The notes beneath the pieces were generated by a model, which did not search any database, was not told the DNA's origin, and was given only the letters and a program-made list of their open reading frames with translations. A stretch of DNA of 30,749 nt from Thermodesulfobacteriota bacterium (GTDB taxonomy: Bacteria; Desulfobacterota; Desulfobulbia; Desulfobulbales; SURF-16): assembly GCA_039715015.1 (NCBI GenBank), contig JBDLIE010000030.1, forward strand, positions 1 through 30,749. The letters are read 5' to 3'. The position numbers and the translations under genes are program-made. Shown in pieces: positions 13,571 to 26,073 of the stretch (its first letter is position 1; each line of letters begins with the position of its first letter).

Positions 13571-13768
13571 CCCAAACACCTTATCTAAAACTATGTATCA
13601 ATAATAAACTTCTTGATTGGTAGACGATTAACCCCGCCCACTTGCTTGTTTTTTCTATAAAAAAAGTCCATAAATACAATGGCAAAGAGGCTATCATTTT
13701 TGACCTTTTTCATATAAGATGCACCTTACTTACGCCCCCTTTAAATGTCAAAAAGGAAAAGGACCTCT

Positions 13769-16700
13769 GTGAATTTTCTCGCTGATCTCCATATCCACTC
13801 TCCCTACTCCAGGGCCACCAGTAAGAATTCGAACCTGGCAGGCCTGGCAGCCTGGGCCCAGGTCAAAGGCATCAACCTCATTGGCACCGGTGACTTCACC
13901 CATCCCGGCTGGTTTGCTGAATTAGAAGAACTACTCAGCCCTGCGGAACAGGGCCTTTTCCGCCTCAAAGAACCAAATGTGCCCCTCGCCCTGCCCGGCA
14001 CCACCCCAGCCCCCCTTGACATCCGCTTCACCTTGACTGCTGAAATCAGCTCCATTTATAAGCGGCACGACAAGGTGCGTAAGGTTCACAATATCATCTT
14101 CTGCCCGGACCTTGAGTCGGCCCGGGCCTTTAATGCCCGCCTGGCAGCCATCGGCAACATCCAGTCTGATGGCCGCCCCATTTTGGGTCTTGATTGCCGC
14201 GACCTCCTTGAAATTGTTCTTGAGGAGATCCCCCAGGGCTTTCTGGTCCCAGCCCATATCTGGACCCCCTGGTTTTCCCTCTTTGGCTCCAAGTCCGGTT
14301 TCGACACTATTGAGGATTGCTTTGCTGATCTCAGCGACCATATCTTCGCCCTGGAGACAGGTCTTTCTTCCGACCCGGACATGAACCGCTTGGTATCAGC
14401 CCTGGATCGCTTTACCCTGATTTCAAACTCTGATTGCCACTCGCCAGCCAAGCTTGGCCGCGAGGTCAACCTATTTGACTGCGAACTCTCCTTTGCTGCA
14501 ATGCGTAGAGCTCTGGAAGACCCGAGCCAGGGCTTTTGCGGCACGGTGGAATTTTACCCGGAAGAAGGCAAATACCACCATGACGGTCACCGTAAATGCG
14601 GCATCTGCTTTGACCCAATCACCACCAGGGAGCATGACAACATCTGCCCGGTATGCGGCAAGCCACTCACGGTGGGGGTCAATCACCGGGTCATGGAGCT
14701 TGCCGACCGCAACACCCCCCTTTATGGCGACCAGGCCCCTGGTTTTGAAAGCCTCATTCCTCTGCCGGAAATTCTTTCTGAACTCCTTGGCGTCGGCCCA
14801 AACAGCAAGACCGTTTTAAAACAATACGCCCGGCTCATCGGTAAATTCGGTTCAGAGTTTTGCCTGCTGCGCGACACCCCGGTGGAGGATATAAGTAAAG
14901 ACTCCACCCTGCTCGGCGAAGCCATTAAGCGAGTAAGGGAAAGAAAGGTCATCAGACAGGCGGGCTTTGACGGCCAATTTGGCATCATCCATGTCTTTGA
15001 GGAGGGTGAGATCGATGAGTTGGCCGGGGCCCAAAGCCTCTTTGCCGGCCAGAAGGTCAGTCGCAAGAAGAAAAAGCCCCTTAACAAGGTGGTGCCGAAA
15101 CTCTTCACTCCCTTATCAGACAAGAAGAAGCCCAGCCAAGCTCACAAAGGTCCCAAACTAAACAAGTCCCAGAAGGAAATTGTCAGCTGCTCAAACCCTC
15201 ACATTATTGTTGCCGCCGGGCCCGGCACCGGCAAGACATTTACCCTGGTTGAGAGAATGAGCCGCATGCTCAGTGAGGGACAACTCCCGGAAAACCTCTT
15301 TGCCATCAGCTTTACCAATAAAGCGGCCGAGGAAATCAAGGAACGGCTGGCGATTAAGATAGGCGATGGCGCAGCAGGGGTTTTCAGCGGCACCTTTCAC
15401 ACCTTCTGCCTCCAATGGCTTCGCAAGGCCCAACCAGCCCTGGAGGTCATTGGTGACGAGACCAGGCAACTCCTTCTCAAGCAGCTCTTTGCCAACCTCA
15501 ACCAGCAGGAACGCAACCAGATCAGAGCGGAGATCATCAGCTATTTTCACTTCCTGGTCACCCAGAAGCAGGGTCTGCCAAGCTCGGACCAGGTTCAGAG
15601 TTACCTCAACCACCTTGAAGAAATTGTCGCCATTGACCTGGACGCCATTATCCCCACCTTTATTGCCTGCCTGAAGGATGCTGATTTCAAAAAGCTGGTA
15701 ACCGATCAGGTGCGGGCGCTCTGCGTTGACGAATTCCAGGACGTAAACCGGGCCCAGTACAACCTGGTCAGCACCCTGGCCGACAGCGCCGAAGTCTTTG
15801 CCATTGGCGACCCGGACCAAGCCATCTATGGTTTTCGCGGCAGCGACCTCAAATATTTCTTCCAATTCGTGAAGGACAAAGATGCCAAAGAGCTTCAACT
15901 GACAACCAATTATCGATCACGGCCTGAGATCTTAAAAGCTGCCAGCGCCCTTATTGCCAGGAACACCCTCCGAAGCGGCATGGCGCTCACTCCCAAAAAC
16001 AAAAAACCAGGCTCCCTCCACAAACTAGCCCTGGCCAACGCCCAAAAAGAAGGGCAGGCCATTGGCCACGCCATCGAAAAACTGGTGGGAGGCACCAGCA
16101 GTCTCACCGTGGACCAGGAAGGGGCAGAAAGTTTTACCTTTAAAGATATTGCCATCCTCTTTCGCATGGGCCGCCAAGCCGCTATCCTGGCTGCCGAGTT
16201 AGAAAATCTCAGCATTCCCTTTCAGCAAAGCGGTGCCACTCCTTTTTTCATGAAGCCTGAGGTGCGCCCCCTCTATCATTTCCTTCTGTCCGTAACCGGC
16301 AAGGCCAATATGGCCGACACCCTCCTCTTGTTCGGGGCATTAAAGGGAATCGGCCAAACCACCCTTGATCTTCTGGAACAAAAAATCCCGGTAACCAGTC
16401 ACAATATCTGGGACGAGATCACCCATATTGAGATCCCCCATGGCGCCATGGAAAAGATAGCTGCCCTGCACGAGATGATGGCCCTCTACAAAGAAGGGGC
16501 CCAGAAAGACGGGAGCCACGGCCTTGCTCAAGTCGCCCACTTCCTTGGCCTTGACCTTGACCATGCCTTAGTAGAAAAATTCATCAATTTCGCCAGGGCC
16601 CTGGGAGGGATGGAGGCTGTAGCCAATCATTTCATGAGCCATGCCCAAGCCACGGTTTATGATGATCGCGCCGAGGCGGTATCGCTGATGACCATGCATA

Positions 16701-16987
16701 GCGCCAAAGGCTTGGAGTTTCCCGTGGTTTTTATTGCTGGCCTTGAAGAGGGAATCTGCCCCTATATCTCTACCGGCAGCGACCTGGAGGAAGAACGCCG
16801 CCTCTTGTATGTGGCCTTGACCAGGGCCAAAGAGAAACTCTTTTTAACCCGGAGCAAGACAAGACACGGCAAAGACTGCGAGCCATCCCGTTTTCTCAAT
16901 GAGCTGCCGTCAACTCTCTTTACCACTCTTGGAAAACCAGCGGTCAAAAAGAAAAAGAAAAAAGCCGTGCAGTTAAAATTGTTTTAA
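13769..16987 (+). CDS. Endonuclease Q-like PHP nuclease fused to a UvrD/PcrA-type SF1 helicase
   Basis: N-terminal DLHIHSPYS, GTGDFTHP, HIWTPWFS, SDCHS, Cys Zn finger; C-terminal AGPGTGKT, DEFQD, GDPDQAIYGFRG, NYRS, HSAKGLEF, EERRLLYVALTRA; start GTG 13769 or ATG 13745. Confidence 0.9.
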   Translation: MNFLADLHIHSPYSRATSKNSNLAGLAAWAQVKGINLIGTGDFTHPGWFAELEELLSPAEQGLFRLKEPNVPLALPGTTPAPLDIRFTLTAEISSIYKRHDKVRKVHNIIFCPDLESARAFNARLAAIGNIQSDGRPILGLDCRDLLEIVLEEIPQGFLVPAHIWTPWFSLFGSKSGFDTIEDCFADLSDHIFALETGLSSDPDMNRLVSALDRFTLISNSDCHSPAKLGREVNLFDCELSFAAMRRALEDPSQGFCGTVEFYPEEGKYHHDGHRKCGICFDPITTREHDNICPVCGKPLTVGVNHRVMELADRNTPLYGDQAPGFESLIPLPEILSELLGVGPNSKTVLKQYARLIGKFGSEFCLLRDTPVEDISKDSTLLGEAIKRVRERKVIRQAGFDGQFGIIHVFEEGEIDELAGAQSLFAGQKVSRKKKKPLNKVVPKLFTPLSDKKKPSQAHKGPKLNKSQKEIVSCSNPHIIVAAGPGTGKTFTLVERMSRMLSEGQLPENLFAISFTNKAAEEIKERLAIKIGDGAAGVFSGTFHTFCLQWLRKAQPALEVIGDETRQLLLKQLFANLNQQERNQIRAEIISYFHFLVTQKQGLPSSDQVQSYLNHLEEIVAIDLDAIIPTFIACLKDADFKKLVTDQVRALCVDEFQDVNRAQYNLVSTLADSAEVFAIGDPDQAIYGFRGSDLKYFFQFVKDKDAKELQLTTNYRSRPEILKAASALIARNTLRSGMALTPKNKKPGSLHKLALANAQKEGQAIGHAIEKLVGGTSSLTVDQEGAESFTFKDIAILFRMGRQAAILAAELENLSIPFQQSGATPFFMKPEVRPLYHFLLSVTGKANMADTLLLFGALKGIGQTTLDLLEQKIPVTSHNIWDEITHIEIPHGAMEKIAALHEMMALYKEGAQKDGSHGLAQVAHFLGLDLDHALVEKFINFARALGGMEAVANHFMSHAQATVYDDRAEAVSLMTMHSAKGLEFPVVFIAGLEEGICPYISTGSDLEEERRLLYVALTRAKEKLFLTRSKTRHGKDCEPSRFLNELPSTLFTTLGKPAVKKKKKKAVQLKLF

Positions 16988-17067
16988 TTTTATTTCACAG
17001 CTGTATTAATCATTTCCCATACTGTGACGAAAAAATAACACCCCTGCATGAAGATTTAATTCCCCCT

Positions 17068-17553
17068 ATGGACACTCCCCAACAGCGACTTCTGAAAATC
17101 GGCAAGGCTTCGGTTGGCCTTATTGGACTTGATCCTGCCTTGCAAAAGGCCATTGCTGACAATCTCAGCCCCAAAGATGCTGAAAACTTTCTCTTTACCA
17201 CCATTGCCAAACTTAACTATGTCCCGGCCTCAGCCGAGAAAAACTACCGCGCAGCCCTACGACAAGAATTTGAGCGCCGATTGGCCGGGGACGAACTAAC
17301 CAGCGACGTCCTTGAGGTCCGTGTCTTCGGCAGTGGGTGTGTTACCTGTGACAAGCTGGCCGCTATGATGTTTGACATCCTGCAACGGATGAATCTGGTG
17401 GCTGATATTGAGAAAATCTATGATCTTGATGAAATCTGGCGGCACGGGGTGATCAGTCCCCCGGCCTTAAAGATTAATGGCGAACTCCTCTGCCAGGGGC
17501 GGATGCCCACCCCTGCCGAGATCGAACAATGGCTACGGGACCGGCAAGACTAA
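17068..17553 (+). CDS. Thioredoxin-like small redox-active disulfide protein (MTH895-type) with N-terminal extension
   Basis: VRVFGSGCVTCDKL (CxxC), GVISPPALKINGE...GRMP. Confidence 0.8.
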   Translation: MDTPQQRLLKIGKASVGLIGLDPALQKAIADNLSPKDAENFLFTTIAKLNYVPASAEKNYRAALRQEFERRLAGDELTSDVLEVRVFGSGCVTCDKLAAMMFDILQRMNLVADIEKIYDLDEIWRHGVISPPALKINGELLCQGRMPTPAEIEQWLRDRQD

Positions 17554-17570
17554 ATCCTTACTGCTGTTTC

Positions 17571-17606
17571 AAAAAAACAGGCCAAGGCGCTTTCGCGCCC
17601 TGGCCT
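17571..17606 (-). terminator. Intrinsic terminator hairpin, T-tract on the minus strand
   Basis: AGGCCAAGGCGC-TTTC-GCGCCCTGGCCT preceded on the plus strand by an A7 run. Confidence 0.6.
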
Positions 17607-17932
17607 GGTGGGCAGGGTGCTATCCAGGAAGCCCAAAAGAGTCACCTTGCCGCACTACGCAACATCTAGCGAGCTGACCACCAGAAAATACTGCGGCAAT
17701 TCGCCATGCTACACTTTGTCGCACCGCGATAAAATGCCTCCTGTTCCATGGCCATGTCCAATCGGCGTGGCCCCCGGCTAAATCTCCCCAGGAACCACTC
17801 GCTAAAAAACAGTTTGCCGATAAAGCTTTTTGGGAAAAAATGTGATGAACTGCCAGAGACGGGGAGGCAAGGACTAAGACAGGGAAAACAGATATTGGCC
17901 CTTGCTTGGAGAAGCCGCCATCGTACTGGTGA

Positions 17933-18484
17933 CTAGCGCAAAAGACCGAAAAAATGGGGCTGATGAAAATCAGGTCTTTCACCTGGGACAGGATAGGCAG
18001 CTAAATAACAACGCTCCACGCCCTGGCCATGTATGGCGTAGGCATTGGTATGGGTGAAAGGAGTTGGGAGGTGATCTGCAACCAGTTTCAAAGTGGCCTG
18101 CCAGCGGCAACCCACAATCTCGGTTGAGAAATGGCTGGGATGCAGTTTCTTCTTAACCTGGCGGATACCGGCAAGAAGGAGGATAAGATAATGACCGTGG
18201 GGGCCCATTTCCACCTCAAGATAATGGCCATTGGCTGCAAGCAAAAAAAGCTCCACTACTTCATAGTCCCAGAGCCCGTTCAACTCACCCTCCCCACCTG
18301 CTGGTGGAGGGTCACCATAAAAGGGTGCTGCCACAGTTATCGTAAGCTCATCATCAGTCAGTCGAACAGAGAGATCAACGACATCAGCCTGTGCCACAGG
18401 GGAGCCATCCCAAGTCTGGGCAATCTGCAGCTTAACGGTTTCTGCCTTCTTATACTTCGGCAAAAGGAAACTCAGGGTCATCAA
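17933..18484 (-). CDS. UPF0462 / C4orf33-like protein
   Basis: TWDGSPV, APFYGDPP, LWDYEVVELF, YLEVEMGPHG, NAYAIHG, PDFH match the motif order of human C4orf33 as I recall it; start codon uncertain. Confidence 0.75.
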   Translation of the reverse strand: MMTLSFLLPKYKKAETVKLQIAQTWDGSPVAQADVVDLSVRLTDDELTITVAAPFYGDPPPAGGEGELNGLWDYEVVELFLLAANGHYLEVEMGPHGHYLILLLAGIRQVKKKLHPSHFSTEIVGCRWQATLKLVADHLPTPFTHTNAYAIHGQGVERCYLAAYPVPGERPDFHQPHFFGLLR

Positions 18485-19067
18485 GAAGCTTGATCATCCT
18501 CTGCTTCTTGCCGGTCTTGCGGTCATGGAATTCCACCAGAGACTCGATGACATCAATCACCTCATCCTCAGTGGCACCCCGCTTAATCCGTCTTCCCTTT
18601 TTAGGGTTGGGCCCACCTTTACCGCCCACGTAGATCTCATAGCCTTTCTTGCTGGCATGGACGCCAATATCTGTGGTCATCACCCCAGAGCAGCTCAAAG
18701 GACAGGCCGAAAGGGCGATTTTAAACTTAGGCTTGGTATTGGCACGATCCTTAAATCGTTCTAACACCTTGGCATTCAACTCCTCGATATCGACAAGACC
18801 CAGGTTGCAGTGTGGCTGACTCACACAGACCCGAGGCAGGGGAAACTTACCAGGCCCTTTGAAGTCGGCGCCTAAGGGGGCCAGGGCTTTTTTTAGTTCA
18901 TCAACTGCTGACTCCGGCACATTCATCAGACGCAGATTCTGAGCAGTGGAACAATAAATCCCCAAGTCATACTTGGCGGCAAGCTCATGGGCCTTGGCCA
19001 TGATATCAAGGGGTAACCTGCCGGCAGGCAGCAGGATAGTGACGCTTATCTTCTTTTCTTCAGTCAT
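18450..19067 (-). CDS. Small nitrite/sulfite reductase-like protein (siroheme-[4Fe-4S] domain)
   Basis: PAGRL...STAQNLRL ferredoxin-like half domain; C-x5-C (CVSQPHC), PKFKIALSAC-x3-C, DIG, YVGGKGG. Confidence 0.85.
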   Translation of the reverse strand: MTEEKKISVTILLPAGRLPLDIMAKAHELAAKYDLGIYCSTAQNLRLMNVPESAVDELKKALAPLGADFKGPGKFPLPRVCVSQPHCNLGLVDIEELNAKVLERFKDRANTKPKFKIALSACPLSCSGVMTTDIGVHASKKGYEIYVGGKGGPNPKKGRRIKRGATEDEVIDVIESLVEFHDRKTGKKQRMIKLLDDPEFPFAEV

Positions 19068-19338
19068 TATATAGAGAACTCCGATGGTGGTTAGTCTGAC
19101 ACAAGGAGGGGTATAAAGCGCCTTCTTACCAAAATTTAAACAACTGTGCAAAAGGGTATTACACCGGGCAGAGCCAGCTAGTGAATAGGTCTTAATCTTG
19201 TTTTAAATTTTTAACAGTCCTGGAAAATATCTATGGATGAAATTGTTACCACAGAGTACAAGGTGAGCTAGAATTTCATCAAACCTCTTCAAAAGAGATT
19301 CCCCCACTTTCGGTGGGGAGATATATAAGGAGTCCACC

Positions 19339-19764
19339 ATGCCTTACGCCCATAACCCATACGGTGCTGGTGACCGTGCCGTCCGTTCCATTGATCGTAA
19401 TCGGGAAAAGGAACGACGGATCATGCTCAAACTTGCTCAGAAGCATGCCGACGAACTGTCAACCAGACTTGTCCAACGCCTGCTGGACACCCATATTATT
19501 GAAACGGACAATGTAGACGCTATCCGCGAACATTTCAGCAACCTGTTTCAGAAACTGCGTGACATGGACGAATTTGATCTGCAGTTCAAAATCGCGCCCC
19601 TAAGGCAGCTTGCTGCTGATCCGAACTTCCTCACCCTCTATGTTACTCAGCACATCATTGAGGACCTTATTGAACACCCTCAAATTGAAGACATATTCGG
19701 TGATGACAAGGAGATCTTTCTCGCTGTGGATTCCATCATGGACAAGCTGAGACCACCGGAATAA
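19339..19764 (+). CDS. Hypothetical helical protein
   Basis: 141-aa ORF with strong SD AAGGAG and host-like codon use; acidic C-terminus IEDIFGDD. Confidence 0.8.
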   Translation: MPYAHNPYGAGDRAVRSIDRNREKERRIMLKLAQKHADELSTRLVQRLLDTHIIETDNVDAIREHFSNLFQKLRDMDEFDLQFKIAPLRQLAADPNFLTLYVTQHIIEDLIEHPQIEDIFGDDKEIFLAVDSIMDKLRPPE

Positions 19765-19792
19765 ATTTCTCTTTCTCGACCCAGGAAAATCC

Positions 19793-19832
19793 CAAAGGCC
19801 ACGAACACTTTTTAGTCACTTCGTGGCCTTTG
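19793..19832 (+). terminator. 13-bp perfect hairpin between the hypothetical gene and the radical SAM gene
   Basis: CAAAGGCCACGAA-N14-TTCGTGGCCTTTG; weak U-tract. Confidence 0.5.
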
Positions 19833-19875
19833 CTGTTTATCATTTCTGCCAATTCAAACGTCTTTCCCGCTTTCC

Positions 19876-21180
19876 ATGTCTGTTGCCGCAAATGACATCC
19901 ACCCGCGCCGCATGCCCCACCTTCTCTATGCCAACGGCAAGGGCGAGATCCTCGACCTGCCCGACCTTGAGATGGCTGGCAGGGCCGGGCGCTGGTTCTT
20001 CAGGCCCGAATTGACAGACATTATCCCCTTACCGGAAAACAGCGACATCTTTGTCCTGCCCAACAGGATGCCCATTGGTTTTGATCCAAAAACCGGCGAT
20101 CCCGTCCTTGTTCAGGAAAATCCAGACAATCGGCGCGATGGCATCCAGTCAGTGGCGGCCTTTATGGCCCCGGCCCACACCGCCATCTACACTGCAGCCT
20201 ATGAGAAGGACCAAACTAACCCAACCAACCTCCCTCTTTTCGCCTATACGGCTGTGGGTTGGCTTGACGGCAAATTCTGGGTCTGCGGTTTCCGCAGTGA
20301 CACGGACACGCGCCAGGAGTTTGACCAGATCTCCCAGGAGAAAATCCGCAAGAAGACCAATAAGAGCCTGCAGAAATATAAAAAGAACAGGTTAATCCAG
20401 CATCTCGGCAAATGCTCTCTGACCTATGGCTGCCCGGCTGCCAAGAACCTTTTTCTCGGCCGCTATGAGGCCCCCCTGCCCTGCTCCCCAGCCTGTAATG
20501 CCAAATGCGTGGGCTGTATCTCCCTGCAACCTTCCGGCTGCTGCCCCTCCACCCAGGAAAGGCTGAAATTTGTGCCATCCCCTCAGGAGATTGCCGAAGT
20601 AGCCCTTAACCATCTGGCCAAGGTCCCCCACGGCGTGGTGAGCTTCGGCCAGGGTTGCGAGGGCGAACCCCTGCTCCAGGCCGAAACCATTGCAAAGGCG
20701 ATCCGCCTGATCCGCAAAAAAACATCTGCCGGCACCATTAATCTCAACTCCAACTCCAGCCTGCCCGAGGCTGTTGAACGTTTGGCGGCCGCCGGCCTTG
20801 ATTCTATGCGGGTCAGTATGAATTCCGCCCGCAAGGGTTGCCACACCCTCTATTATCGCCCTGAGGGGTTTAATTTTAAGAATGTTCTGGAATCGATCCT
20901 GGCCATGAAAAAGGCGGGTAAATTTGTATCGCTTAATTATTTTATCCTGCCCGGCTTCACCGATGATCCGGATGAGTTTACTGCTTTTTGTGACCTTGTT
21001 GATCTCTATCGTCCCGATCTTATTCAACTTCGCAACCTGAACATGGACCCGGACTGGTATTTTGATGTTGTCCAGCATCCGGCCCGCCAGAAACCTATGG
21101 GTGTACAAAACTGGCTTCATGAGGTAAAAAAACGCTTTCCGGATCTCAAATTCGGTTACTTCAACCCGGCATTACGTTAA
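19876..21180 (+). CDS. Radical SAM protein of unknown function
   Basis: CNAKCVGC (Cx3Cx2C), SFGQGCEGEP (GGE-like motif), RVSMNS. Confidence 0.92.
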   Translation: MSVAANDIHPRRMPHLLYANGKGEILDLPDLEMAGRAGRWFFRPELTDIIPLPENSDIFVLPNRMPIGFDPKTGDPVLVQENPDNRRDGIQSVAAFMAPAHTAIYTAAYEKDQTNPTNLPLFAYTAVGWLDGKFWVCGFRSDTDTRQEFDQISQEKIRKKTNKSLQKYKKNRLIQHLGKCSLTYGCPAAKNLFLGRYEAPLPCSPACNAKCVGCISLQPSGCCPSTQERLKFVPSPQEIAEVALNHLAKVPHGVVSFGQGCEGEPLLQAETIAKAIRLIRKKTSAGTINLNSNSSLPEAVERLAAAGLDSMRVSMNSARKGCHTLYYRPEGFNFKNVLESILAMKKAGKFVSLNYFILPGFTDDPDEFTAFCDLVDLYRPDLIQLRNLNMDPDWYFDVVQHPARQKPMGVQNWLHEVKKRFPDLKFGYFNPALR

Positions 21181-21229
21181 TTTTTGGTCGTTAGTTAATT
21201 AAAAGACCATCCACATAAGGTTTTCGCAG

Positions 21230-22978
21230 ATGGAAAAGAGAATCATCACCCTGCAAGATTGTTTCAAGCATTACACCTATGACCAGGACAAGGTTTGTTC
21301 ACCGGAAGAAACCGTGGAACGCTTCAAGGCCCGCTTAAGGGAACAGAAGCTCGATGTCCTTAAAGAGGTAAAACGGATCGACAATGGCCGTCTGGACATT
21401 CCTGTCTATTTCAGCGTCTGCGGCAAAGACGCCCTGGAGACCATCGGCAACAAAAAACAGATGGGTAAAGGTTCCACCCCTGAGCAGTCCCGGGCCTCGG
21501 CCTGTATGGAGCTTGGCGAACGGTTCAGCTTCTTTGCCTTTATGAAGAACCCGGACAATTTCATCCATGACACCTATGCCGGGGTCAAAGCGGCGGGCCA
21601 CCCTGTCCTGCCCCTTAAGAAATGGCTGGCCTCGGTGCACGACGAGACCACAAGCGTTGAGACCCTGGAAAAGCTGATCGCAGACATCCCCATCCAATGG
21701 GTGTGGGCCAATAACCTCACCAAGGGCGAAGAGACCCTGATGCCCTTTAGCTGGTTCTATGCCATTAACGAGTTCAATGGCCCTTCTGCCGGCAATACCT
21801 ATGAGGAGGCAGTGAGCCAGGGGTTGTCCGAGATTGTCGAGCGCCATGTCTGCGCCGTGGTCAGTTACGAGAAAAAGAATACCCCCACTATTGATCTGGC
21901 CTCTGTCAAAGATCCGGTGGCCCGGGAGCTCATTGAGAAATTCACCAAGAACGGCGTCCAGATCTATCTCAATGATTTCACTTTAGATACCGGCATCCCA
22001 ACCGTGGCCGCCCTTTGTATCGACCCGGCCACTTTCCCGGAAAAGAGCGAGATTGTCTACACGGCAGGCACCACTCCTAACCCGGAGAAAGCCTTAATCC
22101 GCGCCCTTACCGAGGTGGCCCAGCTGGCCGGTGATTTCGATTCCGGTTCCAACTATGTGGCAAGCGGCCTGCCTAAGCCCCTGGCCATGGATGAGGTGCC
22201 CTATATCACCAGTCCCGGCATGTCCATCACCATCGATGAAATGGTGGACCTTGCTGATGACAACATGAAGGTGGAACTGGAAAACTGTATCGCAGCCTTA
22301 AAGCGTCTTGATCTGGATGTCTTTGTGGTTGATGTGGCCCATCCCGGCCTCAAGATCCCGGCCATCTATACCATTATCCCTGGCTGCCATTTCCGGGAGC
22401 GCTCCCGGATCAGTAATGTCGGCCTCTTTGCCGCCAAGCTGGTGAGCGAACGCATCAAAGACCCGGAGGCCTGCGCCCAGCAACTTATGCAGATGCAGGA
22501 GATCCTGCCGGACGCCTATTATCTTGAATTTTATCTGGCCCAGAACCTGATCAGCCTCGGTCTCCTTGAAGAGGCCCTGACGCATCTGGAAAGGGCCCTT
22601 ACTTTGAACCCCGAAGAAGAGGACATCCCGTATATTTACTCCTTCCTGGGCGACAGCCTTAAGGCCCTGGGCCGTTACGATGAGGCCATTGCCACCATTG
22701 ACAAAGGCAGGCAGTATGATGATGAGAGACCCGACTTCCATAATATTCTTGGAGTCTGCTATTTCAAGCTGGAACGCTACGAAGATGCCATCGAACGTTT
22801 CCACCGCGCCGTCCACCTGCACCCCTCCTCGGCCATCGACTATGCCAACCTCGGCGTTAACTACCGCAAGATAGGGAACAACGAAGAGGCGGTGAAATTC
22901 TTCGAGCTCGCCCTCTCCCTTGATTCAAGTATCGACTTTGCCGCAGCTCAACTAGCGGCTATGAAGTCAGAGGCGTAA
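21230..22978 (+). CDS. YcaO-family ATP-dependent backbone-activating enzyme with C-terminal TPR repeats
   Basis: QMGKGSTPEQSRASACMELGER, NGPSAGNTYEEAVSQGLSEIVERH, ALIRALTEVAQ; about 4 TPRs in the last ~150 aa. Confidence 0.92.
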   Translation: MEKRIITLQDCFKHYTYDQDKVCSPEETVERFKARLREQKLDVLKEVKRIDNGRLDIPVYFSVCGKDALETIGNKKQMGKGSTPEQSRASACMELGERFSFFAFMKNPDNFIHDTYAGVKAAGHPVLPLKKWLASVHDETTSVETLEKLIADIPIQWVWANNLTKGEETLMPFSWFYAINEFNGPSAGNTYEEAVSQGLSEIVERHVCAVVSYEKKNTPTIDLASVKDPVARELIEKFTKNGVQIYLNDFTLDTGIPTVAALCIDPATFPEKSEIVYTAGTTPNPEKALIRALTEVAQLAGDFDSGSNYVASGLPKPLAMDEVPYITSPGMSITIDEMVDLADDNMKVELENCIAALKRLDLDVFVVDVAHPGLKIPAIYTIIPGCHFRERSRISNVGLFAAKLVSERIKDPEACAQQLMQMQEILPDAYYLEFYLAQNLISLGLLEEALTHLERALTLNPEEEDIPYIYSFLGDSLKALGRYDEAIATIDKGRQYDDERPDFHNILGVCYFKLERYEDAIERFHRAVHLHPSSAIDYANLGVNYRKIGNNEEAVKFFELALSLDSSIDFAAAQLAAMKSEA

Positions 22979-23052
22979 AAGATAAAGCCCCTGCCTCTTT
23001 AACGCCGCCAATTCAGGGTGAAAAGGTAACAAAAAAAAGCAAGGAACGTATT

Positions 23053-23487
23053 ATGGCCACAGTTGAAGCAATATGTATCAGCCCCAAAAAGGGCATTGTC
23101 AAAAAGGCCGTTAGCGAGGCTGTCTTTGAAAAAGATTTCGGCATTGCCGATGATGCCCACGCCGGCAAATGGCACCGCCAGGTATCGCTTCTGGCTGCCG
23201 AGAGTATCGATATCGTCAAAGAGAAGCTACCAACCTTAAAGGACGGCGCCTTTGCCGAGAACATCATCACCAAGGGCCTTGATATTACCGCCATTAAGGT
23301 GGGTAACCAGCTACAGATCGGTGATGCCATTGTCCTTGAGATCACCCAGATCGGCAAAAAATGCCATAACGACGGCTGCGCCATCAAAAAGGCCACCGGC
23401 GACTGCATCATGCCCAAAGAAGGCCTCTTTGCCAAAGTGGTCGAAGGCGGCACCGCCAAGGTTGGTGATTCTATCCAGTTGAAATAA
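23053..23487 (+). CDS. MOSC domain protein
   Basis: DAHAGKWHRQVSLL, GAFAENI, LEITQIGKKCH, CIMPKEG. Confidence 0.92.
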   Translation: MATVEAICISPKKGIVKKAVSEAVFEKDFGIADDAHAGKWHRQVSLLAAESIDIVKEKLPTLKDGAFAENIITKGLDITAIKVGNQLQIGDAIVLEITQIGKKCHNDGCAIKKATGDCIMPKEGLFAKVVEGGTAKVGDSIQLK

Positions 23488-23531
23488 GCAGTTTCCATCC
23501 TTGCGCACAACAGTATCGGCTTCCATGTATC

Positions 23532-23573
23532 AGGGCCGCAGGCAGCAACAATCTGCCTGCGGCCCTTTGTTTT
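23532..23573 (+). terminator. Intrinsic terminator after the MOSC gene
   Basis: AGGGCCGCAGGCAG-N7-CTGCCTGCGGCCCT followed by TTGTTTT. Confidence 0.85.
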
Positions 23574-23645
23574 GCATAGATGTGGACGCTCAAACTCAAC
23601 GACCTTCAAGAAAACTTAATAATTTCAACACACGAAGCTCATCTG

Positions 23646-23680
23646 CTCCTTAAAAACTCCTAAGCACTTCTTAAAACTCC
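23646..23680 (+). promoter_or_regulatory. Tandem 10-11 bp direct repeats (CTCC/CTTC followed by TAA or TTAA) upstream of the porin gene
   Basis: CTCCTTAAAAA-CTCCTAAGCA-CTTCTTAAAA-CTCC. Confidence 0.5.
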
Positions 23681-23762
23681 ACCTGTAGATTACGTTTCAG
23701 AGAAAGGAGCTGGCCCAGAGCCAGTTATTCAATAACACCTGAAAGATTAAGGAGTTTAGGAG

Positions 23763-25001
23763 ATGAAAAAGTTTGTTACCTCAGCTGCACTTTGTGCAAC
23801 TACCCTCTTGGCAGTTAACACAGCATCGGCGGCAACAGCCACCGAACGTGAAATCCTCAAAAAGCTTGAATTCCTGCAGAATAAAATTGCCGCCCAACAA
23901 GAGCGTATTACCTATCTTGAAGATAAGGTTGGCAAAAATGACAAAAACGCATCTTCCGATAGCTCTGTAATCACTCTGGCCAACAAGGCCATTGACCAAT
24001 TGAAAATAAAAAGTGACCTCCGTGTTCGTTACGAAAGACGTGACCATGACGAACCTCAGGGGGAAGATGAAGGACGGGACAGATGGCGCACCCGTTTTCG
24101 CCTGGGTGGTGTCTGGAAGAACAAAGCAGAAAAATGGGAAGTGGGAGCCGGCCTGGCAACAGGCGGCTCCAGTGCCACCAGCACCAATGCTACCTGGTCA
24201 GAAAACGAATTTTTTGAAACCAGTGATATCCGTCTCGATTATGCCTACGCTAAGCATAAATGGAAAGACTTCTCAATTACTCTTGGGCAACAGAAAGACC
24301 CCTTTGCCAAAAGCTGGATCTATCTTGATAGCGATGTCCGCCCAGCAGGTCTCACTCTTCATTATGGCCAGAAACAAGGTGTGTTTATAACTGCTGGGTC
24401 TTATGCTCTGCGCTACTATAAAGCAGGTAATGACGCCAACACAGCTATGCTTTGGCACGGCCAGACTGGCTGGAAAGGTAAAGCAGGCAAAGTTTCTTAC
24501 ACGGTTGCCGGTGGTTACCAGGTCTATGATGGCGTGTTCTCTAACCATGAGGCGCCAAACCCAGATTATGATTACGAGATCGCCGATCTTTACGCCACGG
24601 CCAGCGTGCTTGCAGGCATTGCCAAACTTTCCTTTTATGGACATATCTGGACCAACCTTGGTGCTGATGGCAATGACGGCCAAGGTGTCTTAGGCAGCAC
24701 CTTGAATCCCGAAGATGAGGATATGGGCTGGATTCTTGGCATGAAAGCCAAGATGGGACCGGTCAAACTAAGCTATGCCTATGCTGTGGTTGAGGCTGAC
24801 TCTCTCTATGGGGATCTTAAAGATCAAGATTTTGGTGACGGACTCTCAGATACTGATGTCAAAGGTCATAAGCTCGGCGCCTCATACAGCTTCACCAAAA
24901 ATTTCTCAACAGGCGTAACAGCCCAATTCTACGAAGCAAACGAGCGTAGCGACGAGGAAGATGTCGATCTCTACCAGCTTGACTTTAAATATAAGTTCTA
25001 G
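23763..25001 (+). CDS. Putative outer-membrane porin with N-terminal coiled coil
   Basis: Signal peptide (ASA), coiled coil, DLRVRYE...RTRFRLG beta strands, C-terminal aromatic YKF; SD AGGAG. Confidence 0.88.
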   Translation: MKKFVTSAALCATTLLAVNTASAATATEREILKKLEFLQNKIAAQQERITYLEDKVGKNDKNASSDSSVITLANKAIDQLKIKSDLRVRYERRDHDEPQGEDEGRDRWRTRFRLGGVWKNKAEKWEVGAGLATGGSSATSTNATWSENEFFETSDIRLDYAYAKHKWKDFSITLGQQKDPFAKSWIYLDSDVRPAGLTLHYGQKQGVFITAGSYALRYYKAGNDANTAMLWHGQTGWKGKAGKVSYTVAGGYQVYDGVFSNHEAPNPDYDYEIADLYATASVLAGIAKLSFYGHIWTNLGADGNDGQGVLGSTLNPEDEDMGWILGMKAKMGPVKLSYAYAVVEADSLYGDLKDQDFGDGLSDTDVKGHKLGASYSFTKNFSTGVTAQFYEANERSDEEDVDLYQLDFKYKF

Positions 25002-25053
25002 TTTTTCAAAAGATATTCTCTCTCCTACCGGAGTTCCCCTAATTCCAGCTTTA

Positions 25054-25086
25054 AGGGGGCATGGAAAGTCCATGCCCCCTTTTTTT
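25054..25086 (+). terminator. Intrinsic terminator after the porin gene
   Basis: AGGGGGCATGGA-AAG-TCCATGCCCCCT followed by TTTTTT. Confidence 0.88.
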
Positions 25087-25106
25087 ATTATTTCGTCTAA
25101 CGCACT

Positions 25107-25295
25107 CTAAGCCGACATAGGTTCTCCAGGAGTCTGACCAATGTCAAAAACATCATGACAGGCAGGACAGATAAAAAGCCATTTCAGGACCCCATTCTCT
25201 CTCTTGAACATGGAATGAAAGCCATCCTCATAACCGCATGAGGGACAGATTTTGAATTCATCGCCCATTGCCACTTCTCTAATTTCATAATCCAT
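25107..25295 (-). CDS. Small Zn-ribbon (CPxCG) protein
   Basis: CPSCG...CPAC pairs; SD GGGGAG. Confidence 0.78.
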   Translation of the reverse strand: MDYEIREVAMGDEFKICPSCGYEDGFHSMFKRENGVLKWLFICPACHDVFDIGQTPGEPMSA

Positions 25296-25531
25296 AAATT
25301 TTCTCCCCTAAAAATGCTTAATCTGCATCAACCTTCAGGTAATGTCCATATTATCTCTGCAAACACCCACTCTCCTACTGTTTTCTTTCTGACCCAATCA
25401 GAATACAAATAAGGTCAAGATGAGTAGAACCCCCTCCCCTTATCAATTTCCCCTTTCCTCAGAGAAAAAATATCCTTCGGCTGTACATGCACACTTTCTG
25501 CCTTATAGTCTATGGCATAAGGAGAAACGAC

Positions 25532-25981
25532 ATGCCCCATTTCGGCCTCATGGATGAAAATAAGATGCAGGCAGACGAAGCCGCCCTTATGCGGGCCAAA
25601 CTTCACTTTCGTTGCGGCAAACGCAGGGTACGCGAAGGCAAACTCGCAGATGGAATTAGCACACTCTATGATGCGCTGTTATCAAGCATGCGCTGGTACG
25701 CTCTTAAGAATGAGGCCATCCACGCCGAAATACATCGACAAGGCGAGGACATCCTGGAAAATGATGTCAGGCTCCAGCAACTCATTGCTGCTTACGGGGC
25801 CTGGCCTGCTGACCTGAATTTCCAAAAGCTGCTGGCCCTGGTCAACACGGCCTTGAGCAACAACGTCCAGGATCTTGATCGTGATTTATTTATCAATCAG
25901 ATTGAAAACCTGCTGACAGGCCTTGGGGTACTCCCCTTTGATGAGGCGGCGCTGCCACCGGAAGACCCTGCCACTTTTTAG
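25532..25981 (+). CDS. Hypothetical protein
   Basis: ATG 25532 with SD AAGGAG; 149 aa, predicted helical. Confidence 0.8.
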   Translation: MPHFGLMDENKMQADEAALMRAKLHFRCGKRRVREGKLADGISTLYDALLSSMRWYALKNEAIHAEIHRQGEDILENDVRLQQLIAAYGAWPADLNFQKLLALVNTALSNNVQDLDRDLFINQIENLLTGLGVLPFDEAALPPEDPATF

Positions 25982-26073
25982 CCTTCCTGCCAGAGTCTCT
26001 TACTCCTCATTCCTGGCTGCTACGGCGACCAAGGAACAATTCACCCCTCTGTTTTTTTAAGCACAAGCAACCA

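Follow-up and report, generated by a model that had tools for sequence, protein, structure and literature searches.

A YcaO-TPR protein that accompanies the Dsr pathway in Desulfobacterota is a candidate DsrC thioamidase

We analyzed a stretch of 30,749 nucleotides from a Thermodesulfobacteriota bacterium (assembly GCA_039715015.1, contig JBDLIE010000030.1; hereafter the window), focusing on a gene for a YcaO enzyme fused to tetratricopeptide repeats (YcaO-TPR). The source genome comprises 3.0 Mb, is 99.99% complete and encodes a single YcaO. A previous interpretation of the bare letters, referred to here as the sequence-only reading, had described three co-oriented genes for a radical SAM enzyme, the YcaO-TPR protein and a MOSC protein, separated by 49 bp (radical SAM to ycaO) and 74 bp (ycaO to MOSC) and closed by a terminator at 23532. 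Open reading frame (ORF) calls and a hairpin search confirmed this arrangement. A fourth co-oriented gene, overlooked at that time, precedes the radical SAM gene. The features of the locus are as follows.

19339-19764, forward strand: gene for a hypothetical protein of 141 aa that accompanies the radical SAM gene in Desulfobulbales (neighbor comparison; unnamed Atlas clusters)
19876-21180, forward strand: radical SAM gene (ORF of 434 aa; Pfam Radical_SAM PF04055, E 7.6e-16)
21230-22978, forward strand: YcaO-TPR gene of the DVU2210 family, candidate DsrC thioamidase and core of the finding (ORF of 582 aa; Pfam YcaO and TPR)
21785-21844, forward strand: YcaO ATP/Mg-binding motif S186-x6-E193-x3-Q197-x3-E201-xx-E204-R205 (orthologue alignment)
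22154-22180, forward strand: conserved GLPK segment in YcaO-TPR (L314, P315 in 68/71 and K316 in 70/71 orthologues)
22517-22972, forward strand: four TPR helix pairs and a capping helix, aa 430-581 (Pfam; AlphaFold2 model)
23053-23487, forward strand: stand-alone MOSC gene (ORF of 144 aa; Pfam MOSC, E 2.7e-12)
23532-23566, forward strand: intrinsic-terminator-like hairpin (14 pairs, 11 of them G-C, then a T run), the longest stem among 21 terminator-like sites in 17000-26000 (shuffle mean 10.5)

The YcaO domain of the central gene (aa 78-386) matches Pfam PF02624 with 259.7 bits (E 5.4e-77; gathering score 25.7), and the superfamily motif Sx6Ex3Qx3ExxER is intact at S186-R205, in line with the ATP-binding motifs recognized before. 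Within 71 orthologues N183, G184, G188, N189, E193, Q197, E201, E204, and R205 are invariant, and motif position 186 is occupied by S in 40, A in 30, and C in one. Foldseek searches with the AlphaFold2 model (pLDDT 93.9) returned YcaO structures as top matches, and the model shows the roughly four C-terminal TPRs anticipated from the letters as four helix pairs plus cap, a module predicted to serve recognition or dimerization. By sequence as well as fold, the closest solved relative is the McrA-thioamidating YcaO of M. jannaschii (PDB E 4.3e-25; fold E 2.4e-18), with TruD and LynD as the next-best sequence matches. Among the NCBIfam models TIGR00702 scored above its cut-off, while TIGR03266 scored highest yet remained below its own. 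In a quick tree, the YcaO-TPR proteins group into a single clade (SH-aLRT 99), next to a sister group of ~485 aa that lacks TPRs, and no viral-contig relative was found among 35 pattern matches. Longer relatives are encoded in a metagenome-assembled genome of Elusimicrobia (P0299, 675 aa; P0300, 859 aa), thus related fusions exist outside the phylum.

The absence of TfuA, noted before for the window, extends to the whole source genome (0 PF07812 matches; the search control was positive in M. acetivorans). Likewise, no conserved precursor, E1-like or RRE partner, protease or exporter was recognized among neighbors in 110 clustered stretches, a comparison limited in the relatives to ORFs of at least 60 aa. 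A cluster for peptides made by ribosomes and altered after translation (RiPPs) of the LAP/TOMM type was rejected, since no conserved partner genes were recognized and TIGR03604 scored below its cut-off; a TfuA-YcaO system of the thioamitide or methyl-coenzyme M reductase (MCR) type was rejected for lack of tfuA in the genome. The gene shows the traits of the protein-thioamidating type: neither precursor nor E1/RRE partner, and a conserved, usually single-copy occurrence with co-inheritance of a conserved protein. The suggestion that this YcaO, free of TfuA and precursor, probably modifies a folded protein is therefore supported by its best matches to the M. jannaschii enzyme and its housekeeping-like conservation.

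The YcaO thioamidating the McrA glycine (TIGR03266; M. jannaschii 6PE3/6PEU, M. kandleri 6CI7; PMC5589413) is the best match by NCBIfam, PDB sequence, and fold. The window enzyme resembles it in being co-inherited, like a housekeeping gene, with a central enzyme of energy metabolism: in methanogens YcaO goes together with MCR, and TfuA is missing in some of these taxa, too (PMC5589413). It differs in its score (150 bits vs an equivalog cut-off of 365), in sequence (~24% identity), in its fused TPRs and in its bacterial origin; a substrate of the McrA type is not expected. E. coli YcaO, the thioamidase of uL16-Met82 (NF040716; 4Q84-4Q86; PMC13063428), likewise has neither TfuA nor precursor, is acidic, carries a C-terminal TPR region, and acts on a folded protein whose modification was long masked as oxidation. 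Here, the differences are a score of 59.3 bits vs a cut-off of 700, a structural identity of 16-18%, and a broad Pseudomonadota range as opposed to the Dsr-bearing genomes of YcaO-TPR. The azoline-forming YcaOs of RiPP pathways (SagD/TruD/LynD; TIGR03604) have the YcaO fold and ATP site in common with it, but score 111 vs a cut-off of 219 and work with partner, precursor, protease and exporter genes in a conserved cluster, none of which was recognized here. Judged by these comparisons, YcaO-TPR likely acts in the manner of the thioamidases of McrA and uL16, while belonging to neither family.

In order to assess with which pathway the gene is co-inherited, we profiled 221 genomes of the phylum with at least 92% completeness. 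YcaO-TPR matches occurred in 90 of them; 11 genomes with TPR-only matches and two with the TPR-less paralogue only were dropped, leaving 77 full-length carriers. All carriers but one (76/77) encode dsrA. Conversely, only one of the 104 genomes without a dsrA match carries YcaO-TPR (G296, 95% complete), and this genome has dsrC; 41 dsrA-positive genomes are non-carriers. A Pfam YcaO search of the 221 genomes revealed no further family members among the dsrA-negative ones, only four genomes with distant YcaOs. Within the order of the source genome, YcaO-TPR was found in 118 of 121 genomes, usually as a single copy. As related genomes are not independent, we give counts instead of P values. Combined with the recurrent linkage to dsr genes (dsrC adjacent in 13/70 loci, see below), this restriction to dsrAB-bearing genomes, seen within the phylum, identifies the YcaO-TPR gene by distribution and synteny as a conserved companion of the Dsr pathway. 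In three genomes ycaO-TPR is seemingly split in two, by frameshift or assembly error (G115:C2:206300-208014; G055:C1:5352-6842; G236:C39:839-2493); G115 and G055 keep the DsrC glycine described below.

In dissimilatory sulfate reduction, sulfur is carried between DsrAB and DsrMKJOP by DsrC. For the comparison of gene neighbors we used ~20 kb around ycaO-TPR from 50 of 69 carriers outside the order and from 20 of 118 carriers within it, picked for long contigs, as well as a set of 80 metagenomic ycaO loci with 53-88% identity, of which 60 extend at least 1.5 kb upstream and 62 at least 0.6 kb downstream. Leaving aside a generic cluster (c4, 13 families), no neighbor is spread over more families than DsrC, with 18 loci under 12 family labels. 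A canonical dsrC lies within 300 bp and on the same strand in 13/50 loci outside the order, covering eight families and two arrangements: upstream of ycaO-TPR in five genomes of f28, downstream in f42, f49, f59, f71, f74, f86, and f91.

Two genomes of f41 have ycaO-TPR upstream of dsrAB at a distance of ~4 kb; in G184, G239, G273, and G300, dsrAB is flanked by divergent YcaOs. These linkages bear on an alternative in which YcaO-TPR serves the Dsr system by modifying another protein (DsrA/B, DsrK, DsrD, Apr/Sat), with DsrC being uninvolved or acting as the sulfur donor in place of TfuA/ThiS. The dsrA profile is identical under both readings, ycaO-TPR and divergent YcaOs stand beside dsrAB in several families, sulfur-incorporating genes are found among the neighbors (HcyBio with NIL-ferredoxin, Thi4-like), and TfuA-less YcaOs need some sulfur route (PMC13063428). 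We nevertheless regard this alternative as unlikely, since the presence of the gene follows the DsrC type rather than the DsrAB type, and both a nested Gly→Ala switch and a published +16 shift, detailed below, lie in DsrC.

Several further gene arrangements were observed around these loci. Two more clades of divergent YcaOs, one of ~437 aa and one of 550-690 aa that is extended at the N-terminus, occur ~2-8 kb from dsrAB in four genomes (L171:9592-10905, L172:7999-11440, L173:3334-4653, L174:12591-14243). Families f35 and f54, devoid of YcaO-TPR, encode a TPR protein of ~580 aa, whose C-terminal TPRs are ~40% identical to those of YcaO-TPR, beside a B12-binding radical SAM gene (L138:7750-16460, L139:7752-16409, L140:4007-5293, L137:9213-10961); in f35 this pair lies ~1.1 kb upstream of dsrABD-N-C. 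It is possibly another Dsr-modifying system. In f49, a lysine-methyltransferase-like gene (Methyltransf_16/PrmA; L121:10782-11633, L122, L123:10815-11534) sits directly upstream of ycaO-TPR; its product is a candidate enzyme for the Lys trimethylation that has been reported on DsrC, ApsA, and ApsB. The run of f47 (L076, L079, L090) combines ycaO-TPR with HcyBio (homocysteine sulfur incorporation), NIL-ferredoxin and a Thi4-like gene, and in f40 (L127-L130) ycaO-TPR precedes a NIL-ferredoxin gene. A RimK-like ATP-grasp gene is found convergently downstream of or near dsrC in the source genome and four other families (L191:6489-7259; L092:6152-6931; L095, L097, L098). Downstream of ycaO-TPR, genes named queD/queE-like from their sequence are found repeatedly in Desulfobulbales and f49 (L106, L108, L111, L117, L119-L122).

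As a second alternative, YcaO-TPR could be a housekeeping modifier of a ribosomal or universal protein, e.g., uL16 as for E. coli YcaO, its link to Dsr merely reflecting shared ancestry and high sulfide. The predicted isoelectric point of 4.9 (family median 5.2) is close to the 4.4 of the E. coli enzyme, which has a TPR region as well (PMC13063428); an elongation factor G gene lies nearby in f42, f59, f71, f77, and some relatives; and a TfuA-less thioamidase might persist only where sulfide is plentiful. The low similarity to the E. coli family given above, the lack of YcaO-TPR matches in the 41 dsrA-positive, presumably sulfidogenic genomes, and the repeated dsrC adjacency in two arrangements render this scenario quite improbable.

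The link to DsrC extends to its sequence. We compared 79 DsrC sequences, i.e., 50 of carriers, 26 of dsr-positive non-carriers and three from genomes with divergent YcaOs only, which were kept apart; for the non-carrier and divergent DsrC, loci were available for 30 of 42 matches. All 50 carriers have the motif GP-G-[KR]-G, as opposed to GP-A-KG in 24/26 dsr-positive non-carriers. The variable residue is Gly90 in the numbering of the organism's own DsrC, corresponding to Gly89 in D. vulgaris, within PSGPGKGAC. In the DsrC tree, the 24 Ala-type non-carrier sequences form one side of a 100/99 split, whereas in a DsrAB tree (41 rows, quick method, no bootstrap) seven non-carriers branch within carriers and one carrier branches within non-carriers. 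Thus, the presence of ycaO-TPR follows the DsrC type more closely. In one order of seven genomes, Gly was found in 5/5 carriers and Ala in 2/2 non-carriers (one of them a single-contig genome). These two Ala non-carriers are nested inside the carrier-type DsrC clade and, out of seven diagnostic columns, match the non-carrier state in a single one, namely position 90; their DsrC also has V67I and Cys71, in columns outside the diagnostic filter.

Published data on the family center on DVU2210 of D. vulgaris Hildenborough, a YcaO-TPR protein with a native target stated as unknown (PMC7774982). Its loss or an S195R exchange relieves molybdate inhibition, only in Δsat (PMC7774982). It shares with the window enzyme the YcaO and TPR architecture, a similar length (coding span 1728 bp; PMC10102598), and the same ATP-motif spacing at a similar position (PMC7774982), and Desulfovibrio-type motifs among the compared loci fall in the YcaO-TPR clade. 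We infer orthology from architecture, motif spacing and clade, the DVU2210 sequence itself not being part of the alignment. In contrast to the window gene, DVU2210 overlaps DVU2209 (PMC10102598), not a radical SAM or MOSC gene, and is known only for the molybdate phenotype. As to the putative substrate, the native D. vulgaris DsrC peptide LK*EVYELFPSGPGK was reported with 'Trimethylation+Oxidation' in 3/3 rows of a table that contains methylated peptides only and was obtained with a mass tolerance of 100 ppm (PMC3125180 Table 1). This peptide spans Gly89 and contains no Met, Cys or Trp; on it, a thioamide (+15.977) and an oxidation are by our computation 11 ppm apart, below that tolerance.

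Precedents for such an assignment come from the E. coli enzyme, which thioamidates folded uL16 with ATP and Na2S in the absence of TfuA, causing shifts easily mistaken for oxidation (PMC13063428). The modified residue is Met82, preceding Gly83, and the G83A variant is a poor substrate; McrA and uL16 are the only two folded proteins known as YcaO-thioamidated (PMC13063428). In YcaO chemistry a nucleophile attacks, ATP phosphorylates the backbone carbonyl oxygen and the leaving group is eliminated, giving C=S (PMC13063428). A mechanistic study of DsrC used the A. fulgidus protein produced in E. coli (PMC10861901) and consequently could not reveal such a modification. Neither YcaO nor a thioamide is mentioned in the accessible text of the A. 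fulgidus DsrC work, PMC10861901 and bioRxiv 10.64898/2026.08.25.746951, and nothing on the target of DVU2210 appears in that of PMC8319347, PMC6470260, PMC4215793, and the PMC5083090 supplements. In the literature searched, which left most subscription papers and bioRxiv supplements outside its coverage, no paper names both YcaO and DsrC. Within this literature the DVU2210 family is known without a function, and a link to DsrC does not appear. A public proteomics data set is MassIVE MSV000083165 (named in PMC6470260).

The intact ATP motif, the YcaO fold, the co-occurrence with dsrA, the repeated dsrC adjacency, the covariation of Gly90, the published +16, and the likeness to M. jannaschii YcaO led us to favor, tentatively, a reading of YcaO-TPR as a stand-alone, ATP-dependent thioamidase that probably acts on DsrC, at Pro-Gly-Lys in PSGPGKGAC. 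By analogy to Met82-Gly83 of uL16, the site would be Pro89-Gly90 or Gly90-Lys91 in the organism's own numbering. Following the chemistry of the family, ATP would activate the DsrC backbone carbonyl and a sulfur nucleophile would yield C=S. The TPRs likely hold folded DsrC or form a dimer, and the sulfur is likely drawn from free cellular sulfide; with free sulfide abundant in these cells, neither TfuA nor a carrier would be needed. Such a thioamide would adjust the stretch directly preceding CysB and the mobile C-terminal arm, an effect supposed to be modulatory rather than essential because the gene can be lost. In its full form, which we consider possible though doubtful, the proposal is that DsrC of most Desulfobacterota carries a backbone thioamide at Pro-Gly-Lys before the catalytic arm, installed by YcaO-TPR; folded proteins known to be thioamidated by a YcaO would then number three, and sulfate reduction would have its own equivalent of the MCR thioglycine. 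The GLPK loop of the enzyme, specific to the clade, may imitate the DsrC arm and act as a gate of the active site. In 348/20000 shuffles a conserved 4-mer was likewise shared; the match between this loop and the arm was spotted post hoc and is a lead only. Complex predictions of YcaO-TPR (71-row alignment) with its own DsrC (50-row alignment) scored 0.00 in both runs, with the controls not folded, and the result was not used either way.

DsrC may also be the target of a different chemistry, i.e., cyclodehydration, amidine formation or transient phosphorylation near the Cys-bearing arm. YcaO products vary with the nucleophile (PMC13063428), TruD and LynD are the next-best sequence matches, and DsrC contains Gly-Ala-Cys and Gly-Cys motifs. 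However, both DsrC cysteines are required as thiols for the trisulfide (bioRxiv 10.64898/2026.08.25.746951), the reported shift is +16 and not -18, and no E1-like partner was recognized beside the gene; we therefore consider this variant very unlikely.

A number of observations weigh against DsrC thioamidation. The profile is confounded by kinship, and simple vertical inheritance of YcaO-TPR as well as DsrC is possible, which would give the identical DsrC-type pattern. No dsrC lies near ycaO in the 20 loci of the own order or in the 80 metagenomic loci, and in the source genome it is located on another contig, C10. The nested Gly→Ala switch counts as just one event. Five dsr-positive genomes without a YcaO match keep Gly (G033, 100% complete; G214, a single contig; G064, G098, and G268), hence loss of YcaO does not force the change to Ala. 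In addition, a TPR-less sister paralogue and a divergent YcaO are retained in G150 and G243. The DsrC sequences of four DsrAB-DsrC entries in the PDB list plain Gly, these being sequence records, not coordinates. In D. vulgaris the gene is dispensable for sulfate respiration, with ΔDVU2210 growing normally on sulfate (PMC7774982), and is classified as non-essential (PMC10102598 Table S5). The published +16 is unlocalized on the peptide and no DsrC spectrum is readable in Figure S7 (PMC3125180); a nominal +58 equally fits carboxymethyl, acetyl+O, or oxidation of Tyr, Pro or Phe. Finally, DVU2210 was not found in the interactome supplements searched (PMC5083090, one file excepted, and PMC3125180).

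The sequence-only reading had instead combined all three genes into one candidate modification system, with MOSC replacing TfuA as sulfur donor and the radical SAM enzyme adding a second modification. Co-orientation, short gaps and the single terminator suit this idea, and the trio is adjacent in six close relatives, a same-genus genome and five at 88-93% YcaO identity (L002, L031-L035). Adjacency is confined to such very close relatives: in L036 and L037, at 86-87% YcaO identity, neither neighbor lies beside ycaO. The gene-neighborhood comparison across Desulfobacterota, proposed by that reading itself, found what had been named there as speaking against it, a trio that is rarely adjacent and a MOSC gene tracking with molybdenum-cofactor (Moco) genes. 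Not one of the 80 metagenomic loci has MOSC near ycaO. Of 60 order genomes searched, 50 contain the MOSC gene, in only one case, the same-genus genome, beside ycaO. In 19/29 loci from other genera it directly follows moeA, moaA, moaC or a mog-type/molybdopterin-binding gene, according to a Pfam scan of 56/73 candidate ORFs, from which the same-genus locus and part of the alternative frames were excluded. The window MOSC matches positions 163-305 of NF011069, the MoaC/MOSC fusion (E 4e-56), and is thus a homologue of its C-terminal half, differing from it in standing alone. By this synteny, it is usually a gene of Moco operons, relocated behind ycaO in the present lineage only, and its role as dedicated sulfur donor was rejected.

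The radical SAM gene behaves similarly. It was detected in 101/221 genomes, 47 with and 54 without YcaO-TPR, and is missing in 30 carriers (Jaccard 0.36). Outside the order it is adjacent to ycaO in 1/50 loci, although 32/50 of those genomes encode it, and it lies near ycaO in 5/80 metagenomic loci (adjacent in two). On the other side stand 8/20 own-order loci with the gene within ~9 kb of ycaO (adjacent in two), and a radical SAM-ycaO-dsrC row in the distant genome L125. Because of the poorly overlapping profiles we rejected an obligate partnership, and the second modification ascribed to the enzyme finds no backing in its distribution. In terms of gene order and profiles, the radical SAM and MOSC genes are unrelated neighbors, i.e., passengers of ycaO-TPR; the three-gene system is largely refuted by synteny, and we rate it as highly improbable.

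The radical SAM protein has the cluster motif C207xxxC211xxC214 and additional invariant C180, C186, and C261. Its N-terminal, beta-rich region of ~150 aa (window 19876-20330) is confidently modelled and has no Pfam match; the Pfam search yielded PF04055 alone, without B12-binding, SPASM or RRE domain. Fold and PDB searches returned only generic radical SAM barrels (BlsE, NifB; TMq <=0.42), and Atlas clusters of look-alikes occur also in Bacillota and Bacteroidota. Within the order the 141-aa gene is a more constant neighbor of the radical SAM gene than ycaO; the Atlas clusters of its product are mostly from Thermodesulfobacteriota. Divergent from both genes, positions 18450-19151 (reverse strand) encode a small stand-alone nitrite/sulfite-reductase-like half protein (NIR_SIR_ferr and NIR_SIR), and the block of half-reductase, 141-aa and radical SAM genes recurs at several Desulfobulbales loci. 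Positions 13745-16987 encode a 1080-aa fusion of a TIGR00375-like domain with a UvrD/PcrA helicase.

As a consequence, the idea of a three-gene system is corrected to one of a YcaO-TPR enzyme with two passengers, and the evidence points to DsrC and the Dsr pathway. If this holds true, an overlooked modification would reside on DsrC, which as central carrier of sulfur in sulfate respiration is a protein of global-cycle relevance. DVU2210, with its so far unexplained molybdate phenotype, would gain a function, and a thioamide in DsrC could bear on arm dynamics as well as inhibitor specificity.

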